Position numbers and translations under genes: made by a program. From Chitinimonas arctica (lineage in GTDB: Bacteria; Pseudomonadota; Gammaproteobacteria; Burkholderiales; Chitinimonadaceae), in assembly GCF_007431345.1 (NCBI RefSeq), contig NZ_CP041730.1, forward strand, positions 163,651 through 195,650: DNA of 32,000 nt, written 5' to 3'. Positions 23,713 through 29,454 of this stretch are shown here, in pieces. The notes beneath the pieces were generated by a model, which made no database searches, was not told where the DNA came from, and worked only from the letters and a program-made list of their open reading frames with translations. Within the stretch, counting starts at the first letter, position 1; the number at the start of each line of letters is the position of its first letter.

Positions 23713-23936
23713 CAATTAATCTCGCAGCTTGCCACAAAGGCATTGAATGCGTACGTGTAGTCCGCCGAGGAAAGCAGCAGATGTTCTGGGATAGTCATGC
23801 TGCATTTTATGGAATAGATCATTGCCGCACTAAGGACACTTGCCCCTATCGAGCCGAGCCGAGATGTTCCGTGACAAGTCATCCTCGCAGAGTGCAGCCG
23901 CAATCCTATTGGGGTAAATTCGCTTCATTCCCCAAG

Positions 23937-24488
23937 CTATTCGCCCAGAGGCGAACAGTCCTCCGGTGGATCCGCCCATTCGCCCAACGGATCTTTGGGC
24001 GGAAGCGGTTGCGCGCGGGCAGCACAGATGTACCCGCCTTTGGGGAGGGGAATCAGTTCCAGAAATTCGTTTTCGCATACCGTCGAAATGCTCACCCCCC
24101 ACTCGGCCTTACCCGGCTCCGGCATTTCGTCCATGCAACCTTTCGAAGTTGCTGTAATAGTTTCGATTACGATACACCCTTGTAGGCCTGTGACCTTATC
24201 TGCGGGGGTCACGCGCGTAGCGTAAGTGCTGAGAAAGGCTGCTCCAGTCATGTTCAATGCATTGCACTCTCCAACGCGCGGCGTACTTTCCGTTCTGCTG
24301 GGAATGGACAAACCCCCACAGGCTGCCCCCACGGTACTTCCCCGCGAGGTATAGACGCCGCTGACGACCGTGTCGATTCTAGCCTCATACACGGGTGTTT
24401 CAAGAGAGGCCGATTGACTAACAATCGATGAAGTTACCAGCGCGAATATGCTAAAGCGGCGCCAGCCGCTTTTAAAATAGTTACGCAT
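23937..24488 (-). CDS. Hypothetical secreted protein (signal peptide, several Cys)
   Basis: ATG 24488 lies 2 nt after the upstream TGA (24491-24493). The N-terminus MRNYFKSGWRRFSIFALVTSSIVSQSAS is signal-peptide-like. ~183 aa; no recognisable family. Confidence 0.55.
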   Translation of the reverse strand: MRNYFKSGWRRFSIFALVTSSIVSQSASLETPVYEARIDTVVSGVYTSRGSTVGAACGGLSIPSRTESTPRVGECNALNMTGAAFLSTYATRVTPADKVTGLQGCIVIETITATSKGCMDEMPEPGKAEWGVSISTVCENEFLELIPLPKGGYICAARAQPLPPKDPLGEWADPPEDCSPLGE

Positions 24489-24490
24489 TT

Positions 24491-24892
24491 TCAAGGCCTT
24501 ACTTCCTGAGCTTGTTTTGTTTTACTAATAAGCAGATCTATTCTTGCACGCAAATATTTTCCGAGAAAATAAGCCGTCACTCCGACGAGCAGCATGGCCG
24601 GTGTCACACCATGTGTAATCATTTCACTCAGCGAGGAAAGATGGCTAAAGAAATAGTTCACATTCATCATCATTAAAACGAAAATGTTCCATACCACTTC
24701 CATCAAGAATAAGACAATGACGGCCTCGGGCCACTTCACCCGTCCAGAAACTCCCATCAAGCTCATCGGAATGGCCACAGCCAAAGTCATGCTAAGCGTG
24801 CCATGCTCCAAGCAGGCAAGGACCATCGTCTCGCAGATCTTATAGCTAAGTAGCAGCACAAAAAGACGAAACACCAGCTTAATGATTTTCAT
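24491..24892 (-). CDS. Small polytopic membrane protein (~4 TM), candidate Rhs-tip immunity protein
   Basis: ATG 24892 is preceded by AAAGGA. The 133-aa protein MKIIKLVFRLFVLLLSYKI...LSMTLAVAIPMSLMGV...AVIVLFLMEVVWNIFVLMMM...AMLLVGVTAYFLG is very AT-rich. It begins 36 nt after the Rhs stop. The longer track start (24949) overlaps the Rhs gene. Confidence 0.6.
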   Translation of the reverse strand: MKIIKLVFRLFVLLLSYKICETMVLACLEHGTLSMTLAVAIPMSLMGVSGRVKWPEAVIVLFLMEVVWNIFVLMMMNVNYFFSHLSSLSEMITHGVTPAMLLVGVTAYFLGKYLRARIDLLISKTKQAQEVRP

Positions 24893-24927
24893 GCAATTTC
24901 CTTTAGAAATCCCCAAGTACTGCCGAT

Positions 24928-27900: not shown

Positions 27901-28842
27901 CTTTTCAATCAGCGCCCCAGCTGCGTCGTCAACCTGAGTTAGCAGCTGCGGTGCACCTTCATGATGATACTGATATCGCTCGCCGCTCCCCGCCGGACCG
28001 TAAACGGCGGCCAAGTTGCCTATCGTATCGTAGCTATAATTGAGTACATAGCCGCCAGGTCCAGCGATCTGGCGCAGCGCCCCATTGGCTTGGTAATAAA
28101 ACGAAAGTACCCGCCCGCCCATCGACGTGACCGTAGCGAGATTGCCGGCCGGATCATAATCGAGGTTGGCGCTCCAGCCGTTCGCCTGGGTAAAGGCGCT
28201 CAACTTATACACGTTGCCGGGTCCCGTCGGCTTGAATGTCTGCACCCTGCCATCGCGCCACGTCACTGTATAAGCCGCACAATTGCTGACCACTTGATTA
28301 ATCGCCGTCAAGTTTTCAGGATTGGGGGCTGGGGTAGAATCGCTGTTGGTCTCGGTCGGCGCGATGCACTCGACCGACGCCTTGCGATCACTCATGACTC
28401 TCCACGGGCCGGTGGCAGTATCGCTGCTAAGCATCAATTGCTCGCCCTGCGCCCCAAAGATCACGGCTCGGCCCGGCCAATTGAAGGTCCGCGTTTCGTA
28501 ATAAGTGGTCGGCTGGCCGTCCGACTCCCGAATCTTGTAGAACGGCCCATAGGTATGCGTAAAACGCGTATATGGTCGGATCAGGAACAACTGCTCGGTG
28601 AGGAATGGCAAAGTCCAGCCGGGATTCCCCAATGCACCAGCGGGTACCTGGAAGGCGGCGTGTGCATTTGCACTACTATAAGTTCTAACCAAGGAAAGCT
28701 CGGGTTCGGCTACATTCTCGTAATCGACGACGGAATGACTGTAGCTCGCGTTGGCGGGATGAATGGCCGCAAAAGTGGAGACTGGCAACGCGGCAACGGC
28801 AAATACTTTCGCCACAGCGAAAGCAGGAAAATTCAACTTCAC
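24928..28842 (-). CDS. Rhs / YD-repeat toxin with N-terminal Sec signal peptide and a variable C-terminal tip
   Basis: GTG 28842 follows AGGAAG. The signal peptide is [32 protein letters not shown]. There are dozens of YD-type repeats (e.g. YTYDxxGRxxS, YxYDxxGNL). The Rhs core end is [58 protein letters not shown], followed by a 114-aa tip. No PAAR or VgrG-like region was seen. Confidence 0.9.
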   Translation of the reverse strand: [1304 protein letters not shown]

Positions 28843-29376
28843 TATTTCTTCCTTGGAATATTTCGAACACGCCAGTACCGCATTACAAAGATTGCAATGT
28901 ATTAGCTAGTAAAGACATCTAACGCTTTACCGAAAAACAACCCCATCCGCTCATTGCCCATAAACGAGCGCAACAAGGTACCTGGCTGGGCACACGCACC
29001 AACCAGAGAGCAATCGAAAAAGGGAACAGCCGACTCGCCTACCCAGAGCGGCCGGTACTTTACCATAAAACAAAAAATATGCAAGTATTTCAATACCTTG
29101 CAAGCGAGCAACAGGCATTGAAATCTCTTGAAAAGTCGCCTACACAAGGCCTCTGCCGGGTTTGGGGTCCAGTAAAAAGCGAGGCCTGCAACACGCTTGA
29201 TCCAGGAGGGGGAGGGATGAATGTCCTATGCGACGCGCTCAACTTGGGGGTTAGGAATTTCCCTGGCCCATGCCGCTGGGCCCCTCCCTCGCTGACACAT
29301 GCCCACAAGTACCAGCAGGACAAATAAGCGGATTTTTAAAATTGCAGAGATAAATAAGCCACTTTGAATTGTCTTG

Positions 29377-29421
29377 AAAAAACATCCCCTGCGTTGACAA
29401 GGCTAGCGCTCGCCTCAACGC
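29377..29421 (-). terminator. Possible terminator after the gspG-like gene
   Basis: On the - strand, GCGTTGA pairs with TCAACGC (29391-29397 / 29415-29421 on +). A TTTTTT run (29377-29382 on +) follows 8 nt later. The geometry is not canonical. Confidence 0.3.
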
Positions 29422-29454
29422 ATATAGACGAACCCAGACGTCCCAACGCTTTAT

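Follow-up and report, generated by a model that had tools for sequence, protein, structure and literature searches.

An Rhs toxin cassette within a type II secretion-like operon of Chitinimonas arctica, and the Rhs-type toxins that neighbor this operon family in relatives

Why should the gene for an Rhs protein lie between two core genes of a secretion operon? The question is raised by a 32,000-nucleotide stretch of the Chitinimonas arctica genome (contig NZ_CP041730.1, positions 163,651 to 195,650; this whole stretch is the window, and coordinates below are its own unless a locus number is given), where an operon resembling those of type II secretion systems (T2SS) is split between gspG, encoding the major pseudopilin, and gspF, encoding the inner-membrane platform protein, by a block that carries the gene for a 1304-residue Rhs protein. 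The original prediction, made from the DNA alone, offered two readings: an insertion that the operon simply tolerates, or an Rhs protein exported by Sec and then released through the adjacent secretin machine, independently of type VI secretion (the T6SS). The answer that we favor, at about even chances, is that a stand-alone Rhs module, dependent on Sec, inserted among the genes of a T2SS-like machine that serves Rhs-type cargo in this clade, and that it probably makes use of this machine.

The block (window 23716-29454, minus strand, 5739 bp) occupies the whole gspG-gspF interval, as the original prediction had it, and is oriented like the operon, so that block and operon genes, all on the minus strand, form one co-oriented gene row from 32000 down to 19587. 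It is AT-richer than its surroundings, with a GC content of 0.528 versus 0.665 in the flank at 19587-23715 and 0.640 in the flank at 29455-32000. At third codon positions the GC content (GC3) of the three block genes comes to 0.594 (rhs), 0.529 (orf152) and 0.581 (orf185), versus 0.828 for gspF, 0.838 for gspE and 0.68-0.80 for the pseudopilin genes of the operon, giving the block a foreign look in this check of composition across the region. The remainder of the block consists of two non-coding spacers. The 612-bp leader (28843-29454, minus strand, GC 0.49) holds small open reading frames (ORFs) without a Pfam match (E <= 10), and the 221-bp spacer separates the cassette from gspF (23716-23936, minus strand); neither has a match in the related loci described below, the shorter one showing no homology to the gspG-gspF spacers of relatives. 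A native origin for the 221-bp spacer was considered and rejected, a spacer of comparable length (220 bp) in Chitinimonas sp. BJYL2 having no homology to it. At the upstream edge of the block, immediately past the gspG stop, lies a terminator-like hairpin followed by a U-run (29387-29449, minus strand; found by terminator scan, RNA fold -28.4 kcal/mol, z = -1.9). A functional hairpin would leave gspF, gspE and the following two genes dependent on a promoter within the cassette, and no convincing promoter was found ahead of gspF. The start of gspF itself is likely the ATG at 23712, as predicted, within a longer ORF that begins with TTG at 23715.

Comparison with related genomes indicates how the block came to stand where it does. 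Orthologous operons gathered with a GspF probe (18 from genomes of Chitinimonas, Paucimonas, Duganella, Massilia, Undibacterium and Pseudoduganella, and 15 from metagenome contigs; GspF identity 55-68%) carry no insertion at the gspG-gspF site in any of 33 loci. In the 29 loci that have both genes, gspG and gspF are near-contiguous throughout, with gaps of -5 to 123 bp, and the spacer measures 16 nt in three other Chitinimonas species. Two loci have no GspG ortholog beside gspF (L015 7577-9980; L105 8648-9963), the gene order also being shuffled in the former, and one locus has an additional gspG copy upstream of the operon (L007 4182-4628). Because none of the 33 operons carries the insertion and the gaps are so short, the block is a lineage-specific acquisition, inserted into a tight operon. 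The junction comparison thus bears out the insertion reading of the original prediction, and the Rhs cassette recurs at this site in none of the relatives. How the block arrived is less evident: in keeping with the prediction, no integrase or meaningful terminal repeat was found for it, nor a tRNA, an Rfam match or an orphan Rhs C-terminal module, and a plasmid search returned only short matches (68-74% identity) to the Rhs core. Arrival by recombination of a joint gspG-Rhs module was rejected, as GspG is about 70% identical to its Chitinimonas orthologs, like its neighbors, and the GC3 of gspG is uniform along the gene (0.66 and 0.69), which also counts against it. The best explanation of the sequence evidence is that the block is a horizontally acquired, self-contained polymorphic-toxin module made up of rhs, an immunity candidate and an orphan secreted protein.

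The Rhs protein has the complete architecture of its family. The gene (24928-28842, minus strand), whose GTG start is preceded at 5 nt by the Shine-Dalgarno sequence AAGGAAG, encodes in succession a signal-peptide-like N-terminus, a weak DUF6531-like plug, a YD-repeat shell devoid of cysteine, the Rhs core and a cysteine-rich C-terminal domain of 114 residues. PF05593 (RHS_repeat) matches in 13 stretches (E 4e-66), TIGR01643 matches as well, and the Rhs-associated core model TIGR03696 scores 75.9 bits (cutoff 32.5). The autocleavage motif, of the PxxxxDPxGL type, is intact (DPIGL-x18-DPFGL, residues ~1163-1190, window 25302), and a search of PDB sequences places the protein among homologs of the solved Rhs cocoons Tse5, RhsA and Tse15 (E 1e-40 to 1e-58). 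The N-terminus has lysines at K2 and K12, a hydrophobic core that peaks at 2.56 (Kyte-Doolittle, averaged over 9 residues) and a site of small residues, T-F-A|A, and by these heuristics fits a Sec/signal peptidase I signal. Beyond it the chain passes almost straight into the DUF6531-like plug (seen with Pfam at E <= 10), with no separate delivery domain. Pfam and NCBIfam searches (E <= 0.01) detect no PAAR, prePAAR, VgrG or other T6SS adaptor in the protein, and no T6SS genes (vgrG, hcp, eag and others) occur among the ORFs scanned across the 32-kb window, so that the picture first drawn of an Rhs protein with a Sec-like N-terminus, free of PAAR and VgrG parts and in a window free of T6SS genes, holds up. 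A reading of the N-terminus as that of a prePAAR/transmembrane-domain effector was rejected, the PAAR domain being lacking and the AARxxDxxxH motif absent by eye. The 13 cysteines of the protein are unevenly placed: the ~1000-residue shell has none, and all 11 that lie beyond the N-terminal domain sit in the C-terminal domain.

This C-terminal domain, the candidate toxin (residues 1191-1304, 114 residues, 11 cysteines; 24931-25272, minus strand), belongs to no Pfam family (E <= 10), and an exhaustive search of 1.84 billion representative proteins yields a single relative (P0147), itself an Rhs fragment, whose junction to the Rhs core, GL|EIQCT, is identical and whose cysteine framework is conserved. 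An AlphaFold2 model made with no alignment has a pLDDT of 45, too low for a fold search. The next gene, orf152 (24491-24949, minus strand, GC 0.44), likely starts at an ATG at ~24892 behind the Shine-Dalgarno sequence AAGGAA, about 36 nt past the rhs stop. It encodes a small membrane protein with three transmembrane-like segments at a hydropathy threshold of 1.6 and a fourth by eye, and it matches no Pfam (E <= 10) or NCBIfam model and no known immunity family. Position and appearance are those usual for immunity to an envelope-acting toxin, making orf152 a candidate immunity protein. The last gene of the block, orf185 (23937-24494, minus strand; FNU76_00905), encodes a protein with a signal-peptide-like N-terminus and seven cysteines that is an orphan: its only match among 5.8 billion proteins is itself, with no Pfam (E <= 10) or NCBIfam match, and its AlphaFold2 model (pLDDT 35, no alignment) is likewise too low for a fold search.

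The evidence that ties the operon to Rhs-type toxins comes from its relatives. In 20 of the 33 orthologous loci, a count that includes only loci found via GspF, a giant gene with a signal peptide and SpvB, FG-GAP and RHS parts immediately adjoins the operon on its own strand; in all of the remaining 13, one flank or both are cut short. The giant stands either before two small conserved ORFs that precede the secretin gene or right after the last operon gene, and the linkage is retained even though members of one genus differ in whether the giant is upstream, downstream or both. Examples are found in Chitinimonas sp. JJ19 (L003 2-4342 and 14296-21174) and in further loci (L004 14237-21175; L089 10001-21436; others). 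In these proteins a clear signal peptide is joined by arrays of Ig-like Big_7 domains, by SpvB and TcdB_midN parts, by an FG-GAP propeller and by RHS repeats with an Rhs core; they exceed 1900-2300 residues within the stretches examined, and full-length relatives reach 2600-3800 residues. Past a conserved ...NPTNLTDPTGF end, their C-terminal 260-280 residues differ wholly between species. Two further loci, reached through the giant toxin itself and thus additional to the 33, display the same arrangement. In Chitinimonas sp. BJYL2 (L087 3422-14596) a giant of 3724 residues ends in a CDI_toxin_EC869-like domain and is followed by CdiI and then by the operon, while in Duganella sp. BuS-21 the gene for a giant of 3811 residues begins 162 bp past the operon, with a small AT-rich gene after it. 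Other giant C-terminal domains include a weak Ntox50 match (L016) and an amidase-like sequence recognized by eye (L005). The consistent pairing of the operon family with these giants suggests a machine specialized for Rhs-type cargo.

In C. arctica the position that the giant takes downstream of the operon in some relatives is filled by a second AT-rich island (15979-19502; GC 0.53 versus ~0.62-0.66 around it). Its genes, which share the operon's strand, are for a DUF416 protein (GC 0.44), two proteins with Sel1 repeats (a signal-peptide-like N-terminus on one of them) and a trypsin-like protease whose N-terminus is of the lipoprotein type; no counterpart of any of these genes occurs in the 18 genome-derived related loci. 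A search for homologs of the giant toxin returned no C. arctica protein, but the same search also missed the known giant of strain JJ19 and thus carries little weight. In Chitinimonas viridis, an ORF ~1.3 kb upstream of the operon (L002 2133-3398), with an N-terminus resembling that of P4-type integrases by eye, occupies the place where sister species carry the giant.

The genes of the operon into which the block has inserted all lie on the minus strand. The secretin gene runs off the window, the 3' part within it (31254-31997) encoding a cohesin-like C-terminal domain (Pfam Cohesin, E 2.8e-8). Full-length secretins of orthologous loci have the order TPR-STN-Secretin_N-Secretin-Cohesin and measure 770-802 residues (L003 5804-8179; L016 5955-8267; L087 16372-18780), and no dockerin, a possible partner for the cohesin, was seen in the giant toxins. 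Three minor pseudopilin-like genes follow. The first (30751-31257; 168 residues, prepilin motif G|FSFIE) matches the N_methyl motif and has orthologs of 48-63% identity at the same position in all related loci; the second (30377-30757; 126 residues, G|FTLIE) matches N_methyl and, partially, T2SSG; and the third (29883-30380; 165 residues, G|FSYLV, without Glu5) matches no hidden Markov model (HMM), its motif being read from the translation. Orthologs of the latter two are conserved as well. The GspG-type major pseudopilin (29455-29952) scores 167.8 bits with TIGR01710 (equivalog cutoff 88.85) and finds its best solved relatives in GspG, EpsG and XcpT (PDB, E 2.5e-23). Beyond the block come the GspF-like platform protein (22531-23715), with two PF00482 matches and GspF as best NCBIfam model at 230 bits (equivalog cutoff 424), and the GspE-like ATPase (20874-22541), which matches PF00437 (E 1e-121) and scores 482 bits with GspE (cutoff 630) versus 447 with PilB, both sub-cutoff. 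The ortholog secretin is likewise best matched by the T2SS model, at 165 bits (cutoff 351). In the GspL/PilM position stands a conserved protein (20123-21013) with orthologs in all related loci and no HMM match; its PDB matches, to TALE repeats, were dismissed as spurious. The protein in the GspM/PilN position (19587-20132), with one transmembrane segment and conserved orthologs, gives the only family match of this pair, a weak one to PilN (E 2.5e-4). A small ORF upstream of the operon in one ortholog locus has a weak T2SSM_b match. No GspC, GspH, GspI, GspJ or GspK is recognizable, the three minor pseudopilins matching no GspH-K model at cutoff. Because GspE, GspF and the secretin are sub-cutoff and GspC and GspH-K are not recognizable, the system is called T2SS-like here. 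Despite the insertion, the C. arctica operon genes are all intact and of ortholog length, without frameshifts or stops.

The Rhs protein itself has a different set of relatives. After C. arctica's own, identical entry ("RHS repeat protein") its next best homolog is 36% identical. Signal peptides and cysteine-rich N- and C-terminal regions recur in most of the nearest homologs inspected (34-38% identity), and a PLA2-like domain is present in one. T6SS genes are absent from all six sampled contexts of close homologs. In five of the six, secretion genes are absent within 8-10 kb as well, and three of these five have genes of mobile elements close by: L081 a transposase and genes for conjugative transfer, L082 a Tn7-like set and L092 Rhs fragments. 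In Xanthomonas sp. 3272 (L091 4040-12461), a homolog of 32% identity directly follows pilA, pilC, pilD and coaE, which by gene order is a second type of link between the Rhs clade and type IV filament genes. On these contexts the clade is one of stand-alone, T6SS-unlinked Rhs toxins, and the place inside a secretion operon is peculiar to C. arctica. Short orphan Rhs-core fragments downstream of full-length Rhs genes, typical of displaced C-terminal modules, were noted at L014 4405-4593, L082 14846-15055 and L092 13065-14922; the window has none.

Taken together, these observations are what lead us to favor a Sec-dependent Rhs module that uses the machine around it. In such a pathway the Rhs precursor would cross the inner membrane through Sec, as its N-terminus and lack of a T6SS adaptor suggest, and would fold in the periplasm into a YD-repeat cocoon around the autocleaved cysteine-rich C-terminal domain, in line with the cocoon homology and the DPxGL motif. 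It would then pass the outer membrane via the surrounding pseudopilin/secretin machine, a step to which gene linkage points, while orf152, by its position and membrane topology, would shield the producer from the toxin. C. arctica would in this way have gained a new cargo gene inside the operon. The site of insertion probably matters: a random landing in this one ~11-kb operon of a 5.3-Mb genome has a chance of ~0.2% by rough estimate, and functional coupling is favored because the chance landing of an Rhs cassette in an operon family neighbored by Rhs toxins would be a striking coincidence.

Several points weigh against this coupling. The proposed tie between Rhs and the machine is one of gene linkage only, and the call of a signal peptide on Rhs is heuristic. 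The window Rhs is ~24% identical to the giants and has no SpvB/FG-GAP part, and is thus, as far as sequence goes, not the usual cargo of the clade. The synteny of operon and giants could partly reflect common descent; moreover, no T2SS-like genes lie near the giant homologs found in Lysobacter and one other genome, and because of these distant homologs the pairing is to be read as clade-specific. For C. arctica the flank upstream of the secretin, where some relatives have the giant, lies outside the window. The hairpin directly after gspG makes co-transcription uncertain, and the five Rhs homologs with no secretion genes nearby imply that members of their clade need no neighboring machine. Finally, a folded Rhs cocoon is near or above the lumen size of classical secretins.

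Much of this would be expected if the Rhs module were a tolerated hitch-hiker, a Sec-dependent cassette that landed in the operon by chance and whose product leaves the cell via a housekeeping T2SS, vesicles or lysis, or is retained at the surface. We regard this as somewhat doubtful, and it stays substantial because relatives of the protein thrive without a linked machine, because of the hairpin between gspG and rhs, and because the cocoon is large for a secretin lumen; the foreign composition of the block, its restriction to C. arctica and the distance between its Rhs and the clade's giants fit as well. Set against it are the low chance of hitting this operon, the Rhs-type toxins that flank the same operon family in the majority of related loci, and the cost that splitting a ~16-nt spacer of a tight operon should incur unless compensated. 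The same hairpin, together with the lack of a convincing promoter ahead of gspF, could instead signify that a polar insertion silenced gspF, gspE and the two later genes, so that the operon is decaying and Rhs is unconnected to the machine. The unrelated island at 15979-19502, in the usual downstream position of the giant, would agree with such a loss. We consider it improbable, since all operon ORFs are intact and full length and gspF and gspE retain a host-like GC3 (0.83-0.84).

A still smaller probability, in our view a very slight one, attaches to the idea that the YD-repeat protein is not a toxin at all and serves the pseudopilus as a structural or regulatory partner, as has been proposed for Bdellovibrio Bd0109 and a YD-repeat protein of Myxococcus. 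In Bdellovibrio, RHS-like proteins next to pilus genes have been described (PMC3818213), the Xanthomonas homolog adjoins pilA-pilC-pilD, and the C-terminal domain has no recognizable toxin fold. The protein nevertheless has the full architecture of an Rhs toxin: the autocleavage motif is intact, and a C-terminal domain of the variable kind follows it. That domain's sole relative is likewise joined to an Rhs core, with an identical junction, a small membrane protein comes next in the position of an immunity gene, and the giants of the relatives include a known toxin/immunity pair (CDI_toxin_EC869 and CdiI).

A broader proposal can be framed, which we put forward tentatively. The operon of the TPR/STN/cohesin secretin and its four pseudopilins may encode a machine dedicated to Sec-delivered Rhs cocoon toxins, exporting them across the outer membrane or displaying them at the surface, with C. 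arctica presenting a case of cargo exchange in which a foreign minimal Rhs was captured in the operon. The proposal would cover Chitinimonas, the Duganella/Massilia group (Oxalobacteraceae) and related unclassified metagenome bacteria, with cargo of ~145 to ~400 kDa. If true, it would constitute a distinct, genetically self-contained pathway of Rhs delivery beside the T6SS. The outer-membrane step of Gram-negative Sec-dependent Rhs toxins, which are common by bioinformatic count, is largely unexplained, the prior evidence being one secretin-mutant phenotype and one preprint on gspG linkage, both taken up below. The locus and its relatives offer a compact, testable system, namely a complete T2SS-like operon whose only consistent neighbors are signal-peptide Rhs/Tc-like polymorphic toxins. 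Should the link be functional, it would define a dedicated Rhs export route, pose the question of how a secretin passes a folded cocoon, and provide a genomic marker for contact-independent or surface-displayed Rhs toxins; should it not be, the locus would indicate that a tight secretion operon can take a 5.7-kb insertion with all genes undisrupted.

The far end of the window has no evident tie to the Rhs block. At 181-8376 it encodes a CHASE8/PAS histidine kinase and two PAS-GGDEF-EAL proteins, one with a receiver and the other with a GAF domain; next come mfd, a gene of the PIN-PhoH type, and a ParA-like gene that forms a pair with a TPR gene.

Among known Rhs proteins, the T6SS effectors Tse5, RhsA, Rhs1 and Tse15 share with the window Rhs the YD cocoon, the Rhs core, the aspartyl autoprotease motif and a variable C-terminal domain, in the window Rhs a candidate toxin predicted to be encapsulated. 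They differ at the N-terminus, where the window Rhs lacks a PAAR, prePAAR or VgrG-binding part and has a signal-like sequence instead, and in the cysteine-rich nature of its C-terminal domain. The TcB-TcC pair of Tc toxins and the giants of the related loci are likewise RHS cocoons with a hypervariable C-terminal toxin, the giants resembling a TcB-TcC fusion, whereas the window Rhs has no SpvB, FG-GAP or TcdB_midN part. The giants differ from Tc toxins in their Sec signals, in their N-terminal Big_7 arrays and in that no TcA partner was seen; classical Tc toxins are not known to have a signal peptide.

For the machine, the nearest parallels are dedicated T2SSs with a cargo gene in or near the operon, such as E. 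coli T2SS-beta (SslE/YghJ), Klebsiella Pul (PulA), Pseudomonas Hxc (LapA) and Txc (CbpE). Each is a second, non-housekeeping system encoded with one or few large Sec-dependent substrates, and we know of no Rhs protein or other polymorphic toxin among their cargo. The C. arctica system differs from them in the lack of recognizable GspC, GspH, GspI, GspJ and GspK and in a secretin family with N-terminal TPR and C-terminal cohesin domains.

The original prediction started from the premise that Gram-negative Rhs toxins are normally T6SS cargo, which is too simple, as Zhang et al. 2012 (PMC3482391) had predicted Sec-dependent export for polymorphic toxins, RHS types included. Like the signal-led YD toxins of that class and Gram-positive WapA, the window Rhs has a variable C-terminal domain and a downstream candidate immunity gene; unlike WapA-type toxins, in a Gram-negative cell it needs an additional outer-membrane step. 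Such a step has a genetic precedent in Bcn-A of Xanthomonas perforans, a 1398-residue RHS bacteriocin active in cell-free supernatant, whose activity is lost in a mutant of the T2SS secretin gene xpsD and whose immunity protein is predicted to lie in the inner membrane, with accessory ORFs downstream (Marutani-Hert et al. 2020, PMC7259588). Bcn-A and the window Rhs are alike in size and in having small genes downstream; Bcn-A, however, uses the housekeeping Xps system encoded elsewhere, and its gene does not lie inside a secretion operon as the window rhs does. Bcn-A itself was compared by description only; for Rhs proteins of Xanthomonas, identity to the window Rhs is 32-33%, and a signal peptide is present on one (P0053).

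Closest to the present arrangement is a preprint (bioRxiv 10.1101/2025.05.08.652813) in which the largest Xanthomonas Rhs family (XRhs F VIII) and the Ralstonia family RRhs F II are associated with gspG, and in which export by T2SS rather than T6SS is predicted, functionally unconfirmed according to its authors. There, as here, an Rhs protein is linked to a pseudopilin or pilin gene; the link is to a single gene in those families, and in C. arctica to the secretin, four pseudopilins, GspF, GspE and the genes in the L and M positions. The one Xanthomonas case examined, that of sp. 3272, is a type IV pilus cluster, unlike the C. arctica operon, and may be what the preprint scores as gspG-associated. 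One Ralstonia megaplasmid Rhs locus has insertion sequence elements and Imm58 with no GspG-like gene within 9 kb, and is neutral on the link. A literature search gave no paper that describes the cohesin-secretin operon or its association with the giant Rhs toxins. T6SS-independent Rhs delivery, raised as a novelty by the original prediction, is thus an existing idea, in part backed by experiment and present in the work of Zhang et al., in Bcn-A and in the preprint; what goes beyond these systems, as far as we have found, is the placement of an Rhs cassette inside a complete T2SS-like operon and the conserved pairing of that operon with giant toxins.

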